Source: Bacteroidales bacterium (GTDB taxonomy: Bacteria; Bacteroidota; Bacteroidia; Bacteroidales; UBA3663). From it: 39,384 nucleotides of DNA. Positions 26,667 through 38,851 of the stretch are shown piece after piece (the stretch's first letter is position 1; every line of letters begins with the position of its first letter). The notes under the pieces were generated by a model, which saw nothing but the letters and a program-made list of their open reading frames with translations, searched no databases and was not told where the DNA came from. The translations under genes were made by a program, and so were the position numbers. The stretch is from assembly GCA_045642245.1 (NCBI GenBank), contig JAZUIL010000233.1:1-39384 (forward strand). The letters run 5' to 3'.

Positions 26667-27602
26667 TTATTCTGGCTTGATACGGAACAGAACCGTATTC
26701 TGATAAGTGATGGATTTGTTTCTCGAGAAGAAAACCATACCATCGCAAGGTGACATGACTTCTGCAACTAACGAACCATCATAAGGATGCATTATCCTTG
26801 CTATAATTTGACCTTTCTGAATTGAGGTTCCAGCATCAACAACATCTACTAAGATACCTGCATGCGAAGCCTGGATTGTCGGACACTGATCTTCATCAAT
26901 AATCTGAGAATCACATCCATCTGAAACCATCATCCCTAAAAGGAATCCCTGTGCAGACATAAAACGCAAGACACCATCAATGGCTTGCTGTGCAGTTTGT
27001 GGGTCGATCGTTTCAGTTGTTCCTGCATACAGAGAGAAGGCTTGTGTATCCCAAATCTGCCAGTTGTAATTGAGCAGAACCGTATCAAATGGAGCAGGCT
27101 TACGAGTGGAGACATAAGGGAATCCGAACAGCTTTCCTAAAGAAATATCGGTGGCTCCTGTTCCAGTATCAATTACTCGGACATGCGGTACAAAATTTCC
27201 AGGCAGATAGTATGACGCTAATTGAATGCCATACTTATATTCCTGGATAAACTCAAACAATCCTGCGGCGATACGCTGAGTAGTTTCTCCGAGATCATAG
27301 CCTGGAAACATGCGGTTGATATCCGTATTATCGAGCGCCCAGAAACGTTTCTCAATATTCATAGAGAAAGGATTGACCGACGGGATGACGCTGATAGACA
27401 CACCATCGGCTATCTGTCCGTTGGCCTCCAGCTGTTTCAGCTCATTGACCAGACGAGACGCAATATACTGCTGTTGCATCTCATCTCCTCGCATCGCACC
27501 CACAATGGCCAGCGTCTTAGCTCCCTGGCCAAACGTATAGGCTTTGATGCGGAAATCGTCACGATAAGGTGACGACATGGTAAATATGGTTTGGATTTTC
27601 AT
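26667..27602 (-). CDS. M14/succinylglutamate desuccinylase-aspartoacylase family protein with degenerate metal site
   Basis: DINRMFPG and C-terminal barrel-sandwich-like domain retained, but MRGDE, IQLA and LYAG stand where the paralog has THGDE, IDIH and AEMG. Confidence 0.82.
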   Translation of the reverse strand: MKIQTIFTMSSPYRDDFRIKAYTFGQGAKTLAIVGAMRGDEMQQQYIASRLVNELKQLEANGQIADGVSISVIPSVNPFSMNIEKRFWALDNTDINRMFPGYDLGETTQRIAAGLFEFIQEYKYGIQLASYYLPGNFVPHVRVIDTGTGATDISLGKLFGFPYVSTRKPAPFDTVLLNYNWQIWDTQAFSLYAGTTETIDPQTAQQAIDGVLRFMSAQGFLLGMMVSDGCDSQIIDEDQCPTIQASHAGILVDVVDAGTSIQKGQIIARIMHPYDGSLVAEVMSPCDGMVFFSRNKSITYQNTVLFRIKPE

Positions 27603-27609
27603 AAAAATT

Positions 27610-27775
27610 GGACCCTCCCCCGACCCCTCCACAAGGGAGGGGAGTAAAATGTTTTTTCAAAGAGAGGTGTTTTTAATTTTATTTTTAACTAATGAGGAAA
27701 TCACTCCCCTCCCTTGTGGATTTCTGCCCCCGCTGTTCGGGGGATAGAGGGGGTGCGGCCGGTTGAGGGAGGGTC
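27610..27775. repeat. REP doublet; right arm interrupted by a 40-bp second hairpin unit
   Basis: Left arm 27610-27647; right arm split into 27703-27720 and 27761-27775 around a CCCCCG-N5-CGGGGG-containing insert. Confidence 0.85.
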
Positions 27776-28698
27776 TGCTTGTATATTCGGGCCAACAGGC
27801 TTCCTTCATAAATAATCGGATAGGCGCGTATCGTAAACAACAAACCATCACAAGGCGCTGTGACATCACAAAGGACATCTCCAGTAAGCGGAGAAATGAT
27901 CTGTCCGATGCTTTGCCCCTCTTTCACTTGCACATCATTATGAATACCCGTAACAAAGATACCCGAAGTCGTAGCATTGACAAAAGCCACTGCATCAGCA
28001 CCCTGGCAGATTATACTCTCTTTTATTTTTGCCTGATCGGGAGCTTCTTTCCAGATACCCATGTGGTGCATCAGATTCTGAATGCCATCGACCAGATGCT
28101 GGCACATCGGACGATTGATACGACCACCCACACCCATTTCTGCCACAAGACATGGTGTGCCAGTGCTATTTAACGAATGTGCAAGTGTAGACTCAAGAAC
28201 CGTAGCCGCCTGATGAATCCAGATGAAATCAATACCCATCAGCTTGGCCGATGGAACCAGCTTTTCTGCAGTCATCTCAGAAATTCGCACCTGAGGAATC
28301 TCGCGCAAGAAGATGTTTGAAGCATGAATGTCGATGACCATGTCTGCACCTGAAAGGTCTGTATAAATGTCATGTGCCACCTTCTCCACCATCGAACCGC
28401 GTGGATTCCCCGGAAAGATTCTGTTCATATCAAGGTCAAATGCAGGAACTCCTCGCTGCATAGAATCAATACCTAATGGGTTGAGTGCCGGATAAATATC
28501 TACCGTACCTGTCAGCTTGTGCAAATTCTCACGAACCATTTTGGCGATGAGGAAACAGACATACTGACCTTCCAACTCATCACCATGGGTGCCGGTGACG
28601 ATGCAGATACGAGGTCCATGTCCGTGTGTAAGATGATTCTTGACGATGCGGAATTCCTCATCGACAGGCATCTCAAAGGATGTAACATTCTGAATCAT
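27685..28698 (-). CDS. M14/succinylglutamate desuccinylase-aspartoacylase family Zn peptidase
   Basis: GTHGDE, DMNRIFPG, IDIHAS and VAEMG all present; last ~30 aa are encoded by the REP doublet. Confidence 0.88.
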   Translation of the reverse strand: MIQNVTSFEMPVDEEFRIVKNHLTHGHGPRICIVTGTHGDELEGQYVCFLIAKMVRENLHKLTGTVDIYPALNPLGIDSMQRGVPAFDLDMNRIFPGNPRGSMVEKVAHDIYTDLSGADMVIDIHASNIFLREIPQVRISEMTAEKLVPSAKLMGIDFIWIHQAATVLESTLAHSLNSTGTPCLVAEMGVGGRINRPMCQHLVDGIQNLMHHMGIWKEAPDQAKIKESIICQGADAVAFVNATTSGIFVTGIHNDVQVKEGQSIGQIISPLTGDVLCDVTAPCDGLLFTIRAYPIIYEGSLLARIYKQTLPQPAAPPLSPEQRGQKSTREGSDFLIS

Positions 28699-28743: not shown

Positions 28744-29511
28744 TTATTTCCAGAGCGAACAAGTCACCGTCTGCTGCTCATTGGTCCAAGAATAGAATCT
28801 TCCACGGTTGGTCGGACAGTCATCAGCATCTCTGCCATGAGCAATCTTTATATACCCCCATTCGGGCTCTGTATCGTGAGTTGGATCAAACGGAAGCCAT
28901 ACATTGCCGTTTGAAACCTCTACCCAGGCATGTGTCTGACCTTCGCCAGCAATAAATCCGTTGGCATAACGTGCATGAATACCTAAACTGCGACAGAAGG
29001 CGATCATCACATGTGCATAATCCTGACAGACGCCACGAGGATCTGCAAAGACTTCCTGTGCCGTTGTCGTCGTAGTGGTATGACAAGGTGTATAAATGAT
29101 ATTATTATGCACCAGATGCATTAGACACCGTGCCACTTCAAAAGGATTACTGAGACCTTGTGTCTTATTCTGTGCTACACGACGCATCTTATCATTCCAT
29201 TCTGTCAGACGTGTGGCTGAGAGATAATACGGAGCAGGTAATCCATGAATAGCATAGGGTTGCCGCTGCAGGATACGACCTTCAGACACGACCTTAAAAT
29301 AATCGTGTGGAGTGTCGAACGAACCCCATTGCACAGCATTACCCTGTCCATCATAGCTATGACAGAGCTGGCAAGGTGGAGAAACCTCCAGTCTTGCTTC
29401 CTCTGTCCGCTGGAATTCATTGTTGCACGGAATGGCACGCAACTTAAAGAAATGCCATACTACGGCTGGCGAGAACGTCGATTCTGTAATATATCTGTAT
29501 CTATAGATCAC
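28744..29511 (-). CDS. Bacterial transglutaminase-like protein (N-terminal Bact_transglu domain plus core)
   Basis: Triad GVCQDYAH / THAWVE / FDPT; KIAHGRD; GTG start. Confidence 0.92.
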   Translation of the reverse strand: MIYRYRYITESTFSPAVVWHFFKLRAIPCNNEFQRTEEARLEVSPPCQLCHSYDGQGNAVQWGSFDTPHDYFKVVSEGRILQRQPYAIHGLPAPYYLSATRLTEWNDKMRRVAQNKTQGLSNPFEVARCLMHLVHNNIIYTPCHTTTTTTAQEVFADPRGVCQDYAHVMIAFCRSLGIHARYANGFIAGEGQTHAWVEVSNGNVWLPFDPTHDTEPEWGYIKIAHGRDADDCPTNRGRFYSWTNEQQTVTCSLWK

Positions 29512-29520
29512 GGGGGAAAA

Positions 29521-30219
29521 TCAAATAAGCACCAGGCCATTCAGATAATTGAGCATCTTGCTTTTATACTCCGGATCGTATTTCTCATACGCGTCCTTGT
29601 CAACTACCATTGCTCGTAATTTGGCGATCATCACTTTATCTACAAGAGTCGGATCGTCGGCTATGAATTTCTCAAGTACACCCATGGCCTCTTCGATGCG
29701 ATAATGATGATAATCAAAACGGATGTTCATATCGAGATGCTCTATGAGCTTACCCAACATCAGGAAGGTACGGGCCTGACCATAGACACGCTCCTGAATC
29801 GAACCCCAGAATGACAACAAAGCATCCGTAATAGGCTGCAGATTGGTAATATTCGTGTCTTTCTGAATGGACTTGACGCGAATCAGGTCACGACATATTT
29901 CAATATAGGAGAATGACTCTGTCTTAATCTCTGTACGAAGTACGATGGCATTGTCCATCATAAATTCGATGATAGAACGAAGCGACGTCACGGTCTCTGG
30001 ATTATAGAGCTGATCCATAATCTGGTAAGAGGTGTCGAGCGAACCATCAGTATAGACATCGAGCTTCTTCAGGAAATCACTATAAATAGGTGTTTCGCCT
30101 ACGGGCACATCCAGTACTTCATCATAGGCTTTACGCATCAGATGCAGAAAGAGATAGCCGCGCTCGGCATATCGTCCCAACCAGAACAGGCGGTTGGCAG
30201 TGTTGGCAGATAAAATCAT
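29521..30219 (-). CDS. Alpha-E domain protein
   Basis: ANRLFWLGRYAER signature; helical; between the CP-ATP-grasp and transglutaminase genes. Confidence 0.9.
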   Translation of the reverse strand: MILSANTANRLFWLGRYAERGYLFLHLMRKAYDEVLDVPVGETPIYSDFLKKLDVYTDGSLDTSYQIMDQLYNPETVTSLRSIIEFMMDNAIVLRTEIKTESFSYIEICRDLIRVKSIQKDTNITNLQPITDALLSFWGSIQERVYGQARTFLMLGKLIEHLDMNIRFDYHHYRIEEAMGVLEKFIADDPTLVDKVMIAKLRAMVVDKDAYEKYDPEYKSKMLNYLNGLVLI

Positions 30220-30307: not shown

Positions 30308-31624
30308 TCACTCCATCACCCAAGTATCCTTAAATCCTCCACCTTGTGAAGAATTGACCACAAAGGAATTTGGATTACGTGAGAAACGGGTAAGACCAGA
30401 TTTCCAGACCTTAGTCTCTTTGCCTGTGATTACAAAGGCGCGAAGGTCGCACTTACGAGGAGATGGTTTTCCTGTCTCATCGATGATATCAAGGTCAATG
30501 AAATCTACGACTTCCTGTGCAATCCAGCGTCGTGGATCCTGGATGATCAGCTGCTTTACTTCCTCCAGTCGCTCCGGAGTCATATCACGACCAAACATCA
30601 CACCATAACCACCAGCTTCGGCCACGTCTTTGATGACGAGTTTTGACACATTATTAATAATATAGTCAAAATCCTCCTTGAAGAATGGCAGATAGGTTGG
30701 AGCATTCTGCAGGATAGGCTCTTCGTTGAGATAGTATTTCACCATCTTTGGTACGAAATAATAAATACCTTTATCGTCGGCAACACCATTACCCAAAGCG
30801 TTGATTACTCCTACGTTGCCAGCGCGATAAGCCTCCATCAGGTTTGGTACACCCAGTAAAGAAGTTGGTTCGAAGGCCAGCGGATCAAGATATTCATCGC
30901 TTACACGACGATAGATAGCACCTACACGTTCCTTCTGCTTATAAAGTCCTACATAATAGACAATGCCATTCTCTACTACCATATCGCCAGGGAAAGCCAA
31001 GGTGGCGCCTGTCTGTTCGGCTAGATAAGAATGTTCGAAGAAAGCTGAATTATAACGACCCGGAGTCAAGATGACGTTTATGCCACGGCCATCGTTGATA
31101 TAATCCATCATCTCACGGAGCATCTCGCCGTAATTACGATTGTCTGCCACCAGATTGTCTCGGAAAGTCTGAGGTGCAGCCTTACGGGTCACCTTTCGTG
31201 CAATCATCGGATAACTTGCGCCTGACGGGATACGCAAGTTGTCTTCCAGAATCAGCCAGCGGCCATCCTTGGCCTGCACAAGGTCGATACCTGAAATATG
31301 AGAATAGACATTGTGTGTAGGTGTGATTCCCTCACATTCTGGCATATAGCCTTTACTCTCATACGTAAATTCCTTAGGTACGACACCATCTGCCACAATC
31401 TTCTTCTCATGGTAAATGTCGTATAAAAACATATTCAATGCCTTTACTCGCTGTATCAATCCGCGCTCAAGCATCTCCCACTCTTCTGCAGGAATCTGAC
31501 GAGGAATGGCGTCAAAAGGAAATAACTGCTCATTGAATACACCATTCTTATATACGCCGAATCGTACACCATATCGCTCCATCCAACGGTTAACGGAATC
31601 ACGACTTTTCAAAAGTTCTTCCAT
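30308..31624 (-). CDS. Circularly permuted type 2 ATP-grasp ligase
   Basis: FPFDAIPR, GLIQRVKALNMFLYDIY, LEDNLRIPSGASY, NSAFFEH, GNGVADDK, GGYG, DLRAF, VVNSSQGGGFKDTWV. Confidence 0.94.
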   Translation of the reverse strand: MEELLKSRDSVNRWMERYGVRFGVYKNGVFNEQLFPFDAIPRQIPAEEWEMLERGLIQRVKALNMFLYDIYHEKKIVADGVVPKEFTYESKGYMPECEGITPTHNVYSHISGIDLVQAKDGRWLILEDNLRIPSGASYPMIARKVTRKAAPQTFRDNLVADNRNYGEMLREMMDYINDGRGINVILTPGRYNSAFFEHSYLAEQTGATLAFPGDMVVENGIVYYVGLYKQKERVGAIYRRVSDEYLDPLAFEPTSLLGVPNLMEAYRAGNVGVINALGNGVADDKGIYYFVPKMVKYYLNEEPILQNAPTYLPFFKEDFDYIINNVSKLVIKDVAEAGGYGVMFGRDMTPERLEEVKQLIIQDPRRWIAQEVVDFIDLDIIDETGKPSPRKCDLRAFVITGKETKVWKSGLTRFSRNPNSFVVNSSQGGGFKDTWVME

Positions 31625-31677: not shown

Positions 31678-31881
31678 CAAAGATAAATATTTTCTAGCGG
31701 AATGCAAATTTTTCAATCATTTTTCTATTACAATTTATAGTTTTAAAGTATTTTGAAAGCAAAATTGCCGATTTTTGTAATATAATGATTGCAAAAACAC
31801 ATGGTTTAGAGAAAAAAGAAAGCGTTTCGCTGTATTTTATAGCAATTCTCTTGCTTCATTTAGACGTTTGCTCTATCTTTG
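31678..31881. promoter_or_regulatory. Divergent sigma-A promoters for the ATP-grasp operon and the peptide-amtB unit
   Basis: Minus: TTTG (31705-31708)-19 nt-TATCTTTG (31678-31685). Plus: CTTG (31850-31853)-20 nt-TATCTTTG (31874-31881). Confidence 0.75.
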
Positions 31882-31955
31882 CACCAGAAAACAAACAATT
31901 ATTATCATTTTTCTATTCAAAACATAGAAAATAAAACAAAAAGAAAGGTATTGGT

Positions 31956-32033
31956 ATGGAAACTTTAGTAGTTAAAGAGCTTGCAGCTGGCGAAGAAATC
32001 TCTTTGCTTTACAACATCTGCATTATTTGGTAA
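31956..32033 (+). CDS. Small peptide, 25 aa (METLVVKELAAGEEISLLYNICIIW)
   Basis: Read manually; first ATG after the plus-strand promoter, A-rich leader with AAAGGTA, more GC-rich than its flanks, followed by a hairpin. Confidence 0.6.
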   Translation: METLVVKELAAGEEISLLYNICIIW

Positions 32034-32138
32034 TTTTTCGCATGAAGTCATTCTAAGCGGAGTGAAGAAAATCGCCCACTCTCGTTTAGGATGACATTAC
32101 AGACAAATAGACAACATATTAATTTAAAAAGAATCATT

Positions 32139-33533
32139 ATGAAAGAGAAAAGATGGGTGGTAATGTCCGCCATTTTAGTAATATTTGCCATTCTTGGCTG
32201 TACACATGTCTATTCTGATGGACTTTGGGAACTGGCTCCAGGTGAGGAACTTCAATGGGCCAACGTAGCATGGATGATCACCGCTACGATCTTCGTCCTG
32301 ATGATGACTCCTGGTCTTTCATTCTTCTACGGAGGTATGGTTGGCCACAAAAACGTTATTTCTACCATTCTCCAGTCGTTCATCGCCATGGGTCTGGTTT
32401 CTATTCTTTGGGTGACTGTAGGTTTTTCGTTCAGCTTTGGTGAAGATCTCTGGGGACTTCACATTCTGGGCGACCCTCGCACCTTCTTCATGTTCGAAAA
32501 TGTTGGTGCGCATGAGGCTTCGATGAGCTCATCTGTAGAGGGTATCCGTCAGCTGGCTGCTGGTGGCGTGGCAACGACCATCCCTATTGCATTGTTTGCT
32601 CTTTTCCAGATGAAGTTTGCCATCATCACACCTTCATTGATCACTGGTTCTTTTGCCGAACGTGTACGTTTCTCCGGCTACCTGGTCTTCATGACCTTGT
32701 TCTGCTTCTTTGTCTATTTCCCATTGGCTCACTGGACCTGGCATCCTTCAGGCTTCCTCAACCTCTGGGGCGTACATGACTTTGCAGGTGGTATCGTAGT
32801 TCACGCTTCTTCAGGTGTTGCTGCGCTGGCTGGTGCTTTGTTCTTAGGTAAGCGCAAAGGTGCTTCGCACGAAGATCCTGCCAATATTCCTTTCGTCATC
32901 CTCGGTGCCGCTTTGCTTTGGTTAGGATGGTTCGGCTTCAACGGCGGTTCTTCTCTGGCTGCTGATCACATTGCCGTACTTGCTTTCCTTAACACCAATA
33001 CATCTGCTGCTACAGCCATGTTGGCTTGGATCTTCATGGACTGTCTGCGTGGCCGCAAACCTTCAGCCATGGGTGCTGCAGTAGGTTCGGTAGTCGGCTT
33101 GGTAGCCATCACTCCTATGGCCGATCAGGTTACTCCTGGTGAAGCCATCATGATCGGTCTCGTCACTACGATGGTCTGCAACACAGCATGTTACTGGAAG
33201 AATCGCACAGGACGTTTTGACGATGCACTCGACGTCTTCCCTACCCACGGCATGGGTGGTATCTTCGCTACCTTGCTCACCGGTTTCTTTATGTGTATCC
33301 TTCACGAGGATAATCCTGACTGGGCAGGAATGGGTCTCCACATCCTCGGTCTTGCCATCGTCTGCATCTATACTTTTGTTGTCAGCTTAGGCCTTTACTG
33401 GTTGACCAACAAGATGATCCCTATGCGTGTTTCTGCTAAGTCTGAGGCTTTGGGTCTCGACCTTTCACAGCACGACGAACATTACGGCTTCGCTGATCAT
33501 GCTGAGGCAGAATTGGAAGAAGCTTCAAAATAA
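32139..33533 (+). CDS. amtB: Ammonium transporter
   Basis: MTPGLSFFYGG, FQMKFAIIT, DFAGGIVVH, LWLGWFGFNGGS, GLVAITP, DDALDVFPTHG, GLDLSQH. Confidence 0.96.
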   Translation: MKEKRWVVMSAILVIFAILGCTHVYSDGLWELAPGEELQWANVAWMITATIFVLMMTPGLSFFYGGMVGHKNVISTILQSFIAMGLVSILWVTVGFSFSFGEDLWGLHILGDPRTFFMFENVGAHEASMSSSVEGIRQLAAGGVATTIPIALFALFQMKFAIITPSLITGSFAERVRFSGYLVFMTLFCFFVYFPLAHWTWHPSGFLNLWGVHDFAGGIVVHASSGVAALAGALFLGKRKGASHEDPANIPFVILGAALLWLGWFGFNGGSSLAADHIAVLAFLNTNTSAATAMLAWIFMDCLRGRKPSAMGAAVGSVVGLVAITPMADQVTPGEAIMIGLVTTMVCNTACYWKNRTGRFDDALDVFPTHGMGGIFATLLTGFFMCILHEDNPDWAGMGLHILGLAIVCIYTFVVSLGLYWLTNKMIPMRVSAKSEALGLDLSQHDEHYGFADHAEAELEEASK

Positions 33534-33572: not shown

Positions 33573-33662
33573 CAAAATAAGAATTTGCGTCTATTTGTTA
33601 ATTGTATAATGCCGGTTTGTCCGGCTCAATGATTCTTTTCTTGTGTTTTTTAAGGTATGTGT

Positions 33663-33701
33663 AAGTTTGAGACCGTCGTGAGACTGGTCTCAAATTTCTT
33701 T
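33663..33701 (+). terminator. GTGA-loop intrinsic terminator
   Basis: TTTGAGACC-GTC-GTGA-GAC-T-GGTCTCAAA followed by TTTCTTT. Confidence 0.7.
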
Positions 33702-33800
33702 ATATATTCATTGGTTCAAATAAATCGCGAAAATAGATTGTAGTTTTATTGGTTATATCAAAATATTAGAGTACATTTGCAGCCAAATAATAGAATAATA

Positions 33801-36770: not shown

Positions 36771-37202
36771 TTATTCAAACACCAAGCAATCTCTGTCGTG
36801 TAGAAGAAACACTCCATCCCAGAATTCAGCAGCATCAATGCACATCTCATAGCAATCATACATTTTTTTCTTAGCTTCTTCGGGACTATCCCCTTCTAAT
36901 ATCGATTTTAGACCAGAAATAGCAGCTAATTTGAATAGTTCATCATTAGTACCTACTGTAAAATTGTCCTTATAGCCAACAAATAAACGCACTCCGATTC
37001 GTTTAAGTTCTGGCCCAAGAGTCTTTCCACACAAACAAGAAACACTGTAAAAGACTTTTCCTTCTAACGCATAATTTGCAGTGCGATTACTTAAGATCTC
37101 TTCTTCTGCCTCATTGAGAATTGCATCATCAGTACCATGTGCCGCAATGAAGCAAACGGTGTTGTCTTCCATCGCTTCAATGACATTTTTATGATTTAAG
37201 TA
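36771..37202 (-). pseudogene. 5'-truncated gene, caspase/hemoglobinase-fold (peptidase C25-like) domain
   Basis: Frame is open up to the IS left end (YLNHKNVIEAMEDN...); FIAAHG and YSVSC suggest a His-Cys dyad. Confidence 0.5.
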
Positions 37203-37253
37203 TGTCTTGTACTGAAATAGGTTGACTCCATAATGAACTCAAAATGTTAAAAA

Positions 37254-37658
37254 ATGAGCAGAAGAGTCAACAAAAACGAGCGAGCCTTCAGGCGCTCAGT
37301 GGCCATTGAATATATGCAAAGTGGCCAGAATAGACAAGCAATTTGTCTGAAATACGGTTTGAAAAGTCAGCAAACACTATCAAATTGGGTTGTTAGTTAC
37401 CTGACCCCATACGAGATTGAGACAAAATGTGTATCTTTGCATCCGGAAGAACTATTCAATGGAGCAGATATGATACACCATTCAGAAGAAGGAGTCAAAT
37501 CTCAGACAGCCAAGATAGAGGCGCTGGAGAAACAGATCAAGGAACTTGAGGCGAAGCTCAAGAAAAGCCAGGACAGGAATCTTGCGCTGAATACCTTGAT
37601 CGACATAGCCGAGGAGCAAGGCATACGCATCAGAAAAAAATCTGGGGTCAAGCAGTAG
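37254..37658 (+). CDS. IS3 transposase OrfA (HTH plus coiled coil)
   Basis: ICLKYGL...LSNWV HTH, leucine-zipper-like segment, LIDIAEE...IRKKSG end. Confidence 0.85.
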   Translation: MSRRVNKNERAFRRSVAIEYMQSGQNRQAICLKYGLKSQQTLSNWVVSYLTPYEIETKCVSLHPEELFNGADMIHHSEEGVKSQTAKIEALEKQIKELEAKLKKSQDRNLALNTLIDIAEEQGIRIRKKSGVKQ

Positions 37659-38524
37659 AGCGCCTGTCCAGCACATTCGGTTATACCATCGAATATGCCT
37701 GCGAACTGTTTGACCACACCAAACAGGCGTACTACAAGAAAAGACGCGATGAAGCAGAGCAGGTGCGCCGCCTGATGCGCATCATAGATGCCGTCACGGA
37801 GATACGCAGGATGGATCCTGGCATCGGCTATTACAAGCTCTGGCTGATGCTGAAGAGGATGTTTGCCGAGGACTGGATTCCCGGGCGGGATGCCTTCCTG
37901 AATATCCTGCGCGACTTCCACATGCTTCAGCAAAGGCCTAAGCCTCGGCATACGACCAATTCCAACCATCGCTATCATATGTACAAGAATCTGATCAAGG
38001 GATTCATTCCTACGCAATCGAATCAGTTGTGGGTCAGCGACATAACATATATAGATCTGGTCGGAGGCTGCTGTTACCTACATCTTGTGACCGATGCCTA
38101 TTCCCACAAGATCGTCGGCTGGTGCCTGTCCGAGACGCTTGAGGCCATCCATACGCTCGATGCACTGCGAATGGCCATCTCGACAACTACGGCCGATGCA
38201 CTGAAGGGACTGATTCATCATTCCGACCGAGGCGTGCAGTACTGCTGCAATGCTTATACGGATGAGCTGAAGAAGTATCAGGTAAGCATAAGCATGACAG
38301 AGGATTACAAGCCTACGGACAATGCCATTGCAGAGCGGGTGAATGGTATTCTCAAGACAGAGGTCATCTATCGGGAACGCAGATTCAAGGACATCGACGA
38401 GGCAAAGTCCCGCATCTCGGGTTTCATCAGTTTCTATAACGAGAAGCGTCCGCACAGCAGCATTGGTTATAAGGTCCCTGATCAGGTGCATACCGAGACG
38501 GGACGACAGCGGCAATGCTGGTAA
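37640..38524 (+). CDS. IS3 transposase OrfB (DDE), probably reached by -1 frameshift
   Basis: WVSDITY, HHSDRGVQY, NAIAERVNGILKTE, YNEKRPH; the -1 frame is open from the A7 run at 37634-37640. Confidence 0.9.
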   Translation: MWGQAVERLSSTFGYTIEYACELFDHTKQAYYKKRRDEAEQVRRLMRIIDAVTEIRRMDPGIGYYKLWLMLKRMFAEDWIPGRDAFLNILRDFHMLQQRPKPRHTTNSNHRYHMYKNLIKGFIPTQSNQLWVSDITYIDLVGGCCYLHLVTDAYSHKIVGWCLSETLEAIHTLDALRMAISTTTADALKGLIHHSDRGVQYCCNAYTDELKKYQVSISMTEDYKPTDNAIAERVNGILKTEVIYRERRFKDIDEAKSRISGFISFYNEKRPHSSIGYKVPDQVHTETGRQRQCW

Positions 38525-38851
38525 AGGCTCTCGGGGGCTGTCTGCCCCCTGCCGCATGGCTTCCCCCGAGTGTTTTTCATAGTAAATACAATCGTCAACT
38601 GATTCAGTACGACGTCAACTGATTCGGTCGAAAAGTCAACTAAATCCGTACGATGTCAACTCCCTCAGGAAAAGCGTGAACTTTTTCAGGAAAGCGAGTC
38701 AACTTTTCCAGAAGCAATAGTTAACATTTCCAGTACTGATTTGTTAAAGTGTTAATTCCGAGTCAACCTTATTCAGGAAAAGTCAACATAACCACGTACA
38801 TCTTAAATAACATTTAATATTTAATAGTCCTTTAACCAGTTGAGGTTAATA

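Follow-up and report, generated by a model that had tools for sequence, protein, structure and literature searches.

Does a frame of only 25 codons, lying between an operon of ligase-type enzymes and an ammonium transporter gene, encode a protein, and if it does, on what would this protein act? The question arises from a window of 39,384 nucleotides, the whole stretch of DNA analyzed here, in a genome designated G000 (other G numbers denote the genomes of its relatives). The genome belongs to Ca. Liminaster, the genus UBA3663 of the GTDB order Bacteroidales, whose source is given as mammalian guts in the accessible part of the published description (PMC8957277). The unannotated frame occupies positions 31956-32033 of the plus strand, between the minus-strand five-gene ligase operon and the plus-strand amtB, and its product is METLVVKELAAGEEISLLYNICIIW. 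Genes this short escape annotation. A sequence-only reading had proposed a clean open reading frame of 25 codons at this site, and comparison with the relatives establishes it as a real gene with a conserved frame, a bias toward synonymous change, and homologues in 9 of the 39 genomes of the genus, every copy having 25 codons. In the nine coding sequences, the variable columns number 10, 4, and 22 at the first, second, and third codon positions, and the uncorrected values over 36 pairs (pN 0.109 and pS 0.699) give a pN/pS of about 0.16. The frame is open in all nine copies, and each of the other five frames has a stop in eight or nine of them. The mean identity is 0.78 in the coding sequence versus 0.40 and 0.27 (ungapped) in the 40-nucleotide flanks. 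Judged by this pattern of change, the gene is shown to be under purifying selection as a protein. Its start codon is the first ATG 3′ of the promoter box at 31874-31881, and the start context is of the Bacteroidota type (A at −12, a purine at −3, and T at −1) in 9/9 copies.

Scanning 185,579 species genomes for a sequence pattern gave 72 matches, of which 10 were microprotein loci, eight of them in genomes already found. A profile search of 1.84 billion representative proteins gave five further members together with three repeat-protein artefacts. All five members end in LLYNICI(I/V)W, and four of the five representatives were mis-called with false N-terminal extensions. M1, L4, G12, E14, L17, Y19, N20, I21, C22, and W25 are invariant in the 15 aligned sequences, and the stop position is fixed in 15/15, following LLYNICIIW in the window. 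The C-terminal half (G-E/D-E-I/L-x-L-L/I-Y-N-I-C-x-I/V-W) is near-invariant and has a free end, whereas the acidic N-terminal half tolerates change. The microprotein contains no Gln, and Lys7 is replaced by Asn in G005 and P0004.

We found no match to the microprotein in Pfam, NCBIfam, or the PDB sequences, and no usable match in the atlas. None of the 10 microprotein sequences looked up in a 15-billion-protein collection was present as such, and viral contigs, plasmids, and phages contained no match. Four weak matches were obtained in 400 genomes of the order, none of which is a corresponding small open reading frame, and a less sensitive 72-column model detected no distant homologue, apart from the centre genomes, in two other families represented by 350 and 250 genomes. 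In the literature searched, with subscription journals and supplementary small-protein catalogues outside its scope, the microprotein is described neither as such nor under the genus, small proteins of AmtB, the operon, or nitrogen control in Prevotella. The microprotein is real and new and belongs to none of the listed families, and its own family appears to be restricted to one genus as far as these searches extended. On a gyrB tree covering 30 of the 39 genomes (G000 is without gyrB), its carriers require at least four changes.

The peptide is bipartite, as had been recognized beforehand, with four Glu and one Lys and a hydrophobic run formed by the last 11 residues (Kyte-Doolittle mean of 1.96 versus 0.18 for the first 14). 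Its net charge is −3 to −4. The hydrophobic run comprises only 11 residues (the best 19-residue hydropathy mean is 0.75-1.23), fewer than an ordinary membrane span requires. AlphaFold2 gave one helix with a pTM of 0.34 and a pLDDT of 63-79 over five models, which is uninformative. One RNA run, in which the locus was partly present as the contigs of a relative with near-zero cover over the microprotein, is uninformative on expression either way. A likeness between ELAAGEE in the microprotein and ELAPGEE at the N-terminus of AmtB was dropped because it scores 1.8 bits. The microprotein may also resemble SET-domain, CaaX, and Agr motifs.

The amtB gene of the window (32139-33533, plus strand), the start of which is fixed by homologues, encodes an ammonium transporter of 464 amino acids (PF00909) that we designate as the island type. 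Island-type amtB (at least 91% identity) is present in nine of the 39 genomes, seven of which carry the microprotein. In all seven loci that hold both, the two genes adjoin on the same strand at a distance of 18-105 nucleotides, and this layout suggests that they are co-transcribed. The position of the microprotein relative to amtB is free. It lies upstream in G000, G017, and G021 and directly downstream in G022, G007, G005, and G029, where it closes the unit. The remaining two of the nine contexts are that of G032, in which a deletion has left only the first few codons of amtB, followed by an intact microprotein, and a copy located after pfkA. In G022, short tandem repeats are located directly 3′ of the microprotein (L044 7078-7300).

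In the amtB tree, the three microprotein-first loci form one clade (100/99), which is nested among the downstream loci. The plus strand of the window also retains what is left of the start of an ancestral amtB (31937-31947); this decayed start reads CAAAATGAAAG in the amtB-first loci and CAAAAAGAAAG here and lies 15 nucleotides 5′ of the microprotein ATG. In an alignment of eight promoters, it lines up in register with the amtB start codons of G007, G022, G005, and G003 and with the remnant in G032. The nested clade and the decayed start indicate that the microprotein-first order of the window is derived and arose by rearrangement. G003 and G014 possess the ligase and island-type amtB without the microprotein, and their nested position among the carriers in the amtB tree indicates that the microprotein can be lost.

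The predicted housekeeping promoter of the microprotein and amtB contains the box TATCTTTG at 31874-31881 on the plus strand, which we take to be a Bacteroidota −7 box, with a start site predicted near 31888. Its TTTGCA core is invariant in eight aligned island promoters. The divergent promoter of the ligase operon has a matching −7 box on the minus strand (31678-31685), and the two regions share an inverted similarity of 25 nucleotides (31874-31898 and 31685-31661). Between the two promoters lies a palindrome, TTGTAA-N8-TTGCAA (31775-31794), which is a candidate shared nitrogen operator. The pattern TTGYAA-N8-TDKCAA occurs at 10 of the 14 ligase or amtB loci, from which the pattern itself was drawn, and its 20 genome-wide matches indicated no other nitrogen genes. 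We regard the palindrome as a candidate site for a Bacteroidales nitrogen regulator.

The hairpin behind the microprotein had been placed correctly in its arms and described correctly as having no U-tract, but its stem is longer than proposed (32047-32064 and 32077-32095). The whole stem-loop (32047-32095, plus strand) is a degenerate member of a REP-like family, and its left arm has 21 copies in G000 at four or fewer mismatches. It is kept with a changed stem in G017 and G021, and G032 has the same loop with a different stem. This retention with altered stems fits an mRNA-stabilizing role, and the stem-loop is probably a stabilizer or processing site of the mRNA and not an attenuator. Rfam gave nothing near the gathering score in the leader region. 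The REP-like family is seen as the inverted repeat GTCATTCTGAGCG...GGATGAC at 21 sites of G000.

At its other end, the amtB transcript carries a conserved 3′ element (33581-33707, plus strand) that consists of GCGTC, a U-rich stretch, and a terminal covarying, terminator-like hairpin with two-sided changes in 8 of 14 pairs. The element, for which Rfam also gave nothing near the gathering score, is a candidate 3′-derived small RNA. By layout alone, it resembles the FopS-type small RNAs of Bacteroides as they appear in the available text of PMC11697453. It is single-copy in G000, where its unpaired part is antisense to three other intergenic sites. Of the eight microprotein-bearing island loci, six have the element and two (G022 and G029) do not; G003 and G014 are also without it.

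The pfkA-linked copy, found in G034, is located behind the second pfkA of that genome, and the 2.3-kb contig bearing it has no amtB. This contig is near-identical in G034 and G436, and two shortened near-copies of it are present in G000, whereas a 93%-like pfkA locus in G062 is without the microprotein. The copy in G437 is 97% identical to that of G032, but the gyrB of G437 is only 64-66% like that of the genus. G034, G436, and G437 were therefore discounted as independent cases in which microprotein and ligase occur together, owing to the recurring near-identical contigs and the gyrB mismatch. G032 and G437 differ at 0/78 sites in the coding sequence and at about 2% in the flanks, a comparison that is uninformative on selection after the loss of amtB. 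The pfkA locus, which is 76% DNA-identical to the genome's own pfkA, was observed as short contigs in four assemblies (G000 contigs C81 and C95; L043, L045, and L223). This recurring locus is probably contamination or a shared transferred block, and the host of the pfkA-linked microprotein copy is uncertain.

The minus-strand operon on the other side of the microprotein encodes a circularly permuted (CP) ATP-grasp ligase (30308-31624; PF14403), an alpha-E protein (29521-30219; PF04168), a transglutaminase-like protein (28744-29511; PF01841 and PF08379), an AstE/AspA-type (M14) hydrolase with an HGDE motif (27685-28698), and a second AstE/AspA-type protein (26667-27632), in which RGDE replaces the HGDE zinc motif and which is probably inactive. 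It is an intact member of the Anbu-operon type with an AstE/AspA pair. In the accessible parts of PMC6376114 and PMC5666114, CP-ATP-grasp/alpha-E/transglutaminase systems of this type are proposed to tag or make peptides, the Anbu of a related operon is induced by nitrogen starvation in Pseudomonas, and no small peptide is mentioned.

The ligase is present in 14 of the 39 genomes, and the microprotein is found in 9 of these 14 (8/13 once G034 is dropped) and in none of the 25 ligase-less genomes. Eight of the nine independent microprotein contexts flank the ligase operon. Among ligase-bearing genomes, the microprotein is at the locus in 7/9 with island-type amtB versus 1/5 without it (G032), and no sampled genome has island-type amtB without the ligase operon. 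Whether the microprotein tracks amtB or the ligase had been proposed as a check; both could be counted, but co-occurrence cannot choose between them, because the microprotein and amtB lie in physical linkage with the operon and the genomes are related by descent. Fisher tests were set aside as support on the same ground, kin and linked genes being non-independent.

The microprotein was not found in the ligase-bearing genomes G003, G014, G009, G028, and G036. Beyond the genus set, the same operon was present at 80 ligase loci from metagenomes and at 16 from the order (flanks of 1.5 kb for the 16 and short ones for some of the 80), in several cases with amtB adjoining the ligase, but these loci showed neither a homologue of the microprotein nor any other recurring family of small open reading frames. 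The microprotein is at most a genus-level add-on to the Anbu-type system. An authentic precursor would be expected to accompany its enzymes from locus to locus, and the microprotein has no Gln and no fixed Lys. The earlier suggestion of a precursor or substrate for the adjacent enzymes is weakened accordingly by the 96 outside loci and the five genomes, and as the precursor of the operon the microprotein appears unlikely. For the double-glycine leader test, the C39 peptidase domain PF03412 was not detected in the 78%-complete G000 genome. At 10 metagenome loci (L088, L096, L100-L102, L106, L108, L109, L130, and L131), the ligase operon contains, or is directly followed by, a gene for a protein family of about 235 amino acids (cluster c5).

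Our best reading, to which we assign a rough probability of 0.4, is that the microprotein may be a trans-acting, nitrogen-regulated modulator of Amt-type transport that works via its invariant C-terminal half; target, binding, expression, and function are all putative here. Shortage of nitrogen would induce the microprotein promoter together with the divergent ligase operon, with the palindrome at 31775-31794 possibly co-regulating both units, and the microprotein would be made along with AmtB. Its short hydrophobic end may dock on the inner membrane face of an Amt-type transporter, with the acidic half in the cytoplasm. Docking would alter the activity or stability of the transporter or the access of GlnK, comparable to sP36 in Methanosarcina and MgtR/MgtU in Salmonella. 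The microprotein would be an accessory, non-essential part.

The Amt-type transporter is ranked first as the target because of the adjacency on either side, the second amtB in G032, and the above precedents. The microprotein adjoins amtB on the same strand in seven of the nine genomes with the island type (three upstream and four downstream), and this adjacency survived the rearrangement recorded by the nested clade and the decayed amtB start. The 7/9 versus 1/5 distribution points in the same direction, and G032, which has lost island-type amtB, retains a glnK-amtB operon elsewhere. On the other hand, the microprotein is intact in G032 although the adjoining amtB is deleted, the pfkA-linked copy has no amtB on its contig, and G003 and G014 carry island-type amtB but lack the microprotein. 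The tracking with amtB may be mere linkage in one transcript, and the hydrophobic run is too short for an ordinary span. Complex prediction with AmtB (alignment of 11) and the microprotein (alignment of nine) scored 0.00 in two runs, in which the controls were not folded, and is uninformative either way.

A small AmtB modulator was also the best of the three functions proposed in the sequence-only reading. It is putative, and the supporting argument that no glnK is adjacent proved weak, since a canonical glnK is present elsewhere in seven of the nine microprotein-bearing genomes. For the same reason, the idea that the peptide replaces GlnK was rejected. G000, at 78% completeness, shows just a weak PII-like gene.

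The closest known systems share only some of these features. In the available text of PMC10714827, sP36 of Methanosarcina mazei is a protein of 61 amino acids that binds AmtB1 and GlnK1. As described there, sP36 is like the microprotein in being small, acidic-surfaced, and tied to an ammonium transporter and nitrogen status, but it differs in length (61 versus 25 amino acids), in being a soluble hexamer, and in being mainly archaeal. The two were compared by description only, and sP36 was not among the eight profile matches from the 1.84 billion proteins. MgtR (30 amino acids) and MgtU (28 amino acids) are produced alongside the transporter that each controls, according to the accessible part of PMC10710835. 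The microprotein is likewise laid out with a transporter gene, on the same strand and 18-105 nucleotides away, in 7/7 loci. MgtR, MgtU, MgtS, and AcrZ are single-span membrane helices, from which the microprotein differs by its 11 hydrophobic residues (versus about 18-20) and acidic head, and it matches no Pfam or NCBIfam family. If control of Amt is true, the microprotein would be a bacterial counterpart of archaeal sP36 in a phylum with little-studied post-translational nitrogen control. The impact is limited by the narrow range of one uncultured genus and by the putative nature of the target.

It is possible, though we consider it rather less probable, that the microprotein is nitrogen-regulated but has another target among enzymes and regulators of nitrogen or carbon metabolism (glutamine synthetase, GlnK, or glutamate synthase) and resides beside amtB only for the shared promoter. 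Small inhibitors of glutamine synthetase, IF7 and sP26, are precedents. The retention of the microprotein behind the amtB promoter after the loss of amtB in G032 is consistent with such a target, as is the copy at an unrelated locus after pfkA, the 93%-like counterpart of which in G062 is without it. However, the analysis, which stopped short of whole-genome profiling of the relatives, linked no gene elsewhere to the microprotein by co-occurrence, and the pfkA copy cannot be assigned to a host with confidence.

Association with the ligase operon in another form, as a lineage-specific substrate, acceptor, or inhibitor of the CP-ATP-grasp/alpha-E/transglutaminase/M14 system, for example via a conserved Glu or the free C-terminal Trp, appears unlikely. 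It would explain why eight of the nine independent contexts flank the operon, why carriers are confined to ligase-bearing genomes (9/14 versus 0/25), why the microprotein was retained beside the operon after the loss of amtB, and why the stop position is fixed in 15/15 sequences. Glu14, Tyr19, Asn20, Cys22, and Trp25 are invariant in 15/15. Against it stand the 96 outside loci and the five ligase-bearing genomes that lack a homologue, the location on the strand opposite to the operon, and the confounding of co-occurrence by linkage and kinship. Moreover, the lack of Gln and the Asn at position 7 in two sequences leave no fixed transglutaminase site. As a cheap, synthesizable candidate, the microprotein is nevertheless of value for an enzyme system with no known substrate.

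It is improbable that the microprotein is unrelated to nitrogen control and rides in the island, for example by pairing with the 3′ RNA element as a weak toxin or a membrane-active peptide. The gene moves as a small unit, and the distribution of the 3′ element (six of the eight microprotein-bearing island loci and neither G003 nor G014) would suit such a pair, but the element lies on the same strand as the microprotein gene, with no complementarity to it, and G022 and G029 do not have it. In addition, an acidic peptide with a short hydrophobic run is unlike type I toxins, and phages, plasmids, and viral contigs gave no match.

We give little credence to a combined scheme, in which the microprotein would serve the ligase system as its physiological acceptor or switch and link that system to ammonium uptake; the ligase would tag it reversibly and the hydrolases would remove the tag, depending on nitrogen status, with the tagged state gating AmtB. 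If true, it would provide the first defined substrate of the CP-ATP-grasp/alpha-E/transglutaminase/M14 system.

Least credible of all is a cis-acting leader peptide or attenuator controlling amtB, which had been proposed beforehand and would fit the window, G017, and G021, where the microprotein is first in the transcript and a conserved hairpin follows, but which is contradicted by the 3′ position in four of the seven loci holding both genes, the derived nature of the upstream order, the retention in G032, the free variation of the codons at third positions, the downstream structures that vary from locus to locus, and the identity of the hairpin as a genome-wide REP-like repeat without a U-tract. 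TnaC and TrpL are types of leader and arrest peptides, with which the microprotein shares its length and, in the window, its upstream position; by contrast, its position is variable and is downstream or unlinked in 5/9 contexts. Elsewhere in the window, at 36771-38557, we observed an IS3-like element with HTH and integrase-core open reading frames.
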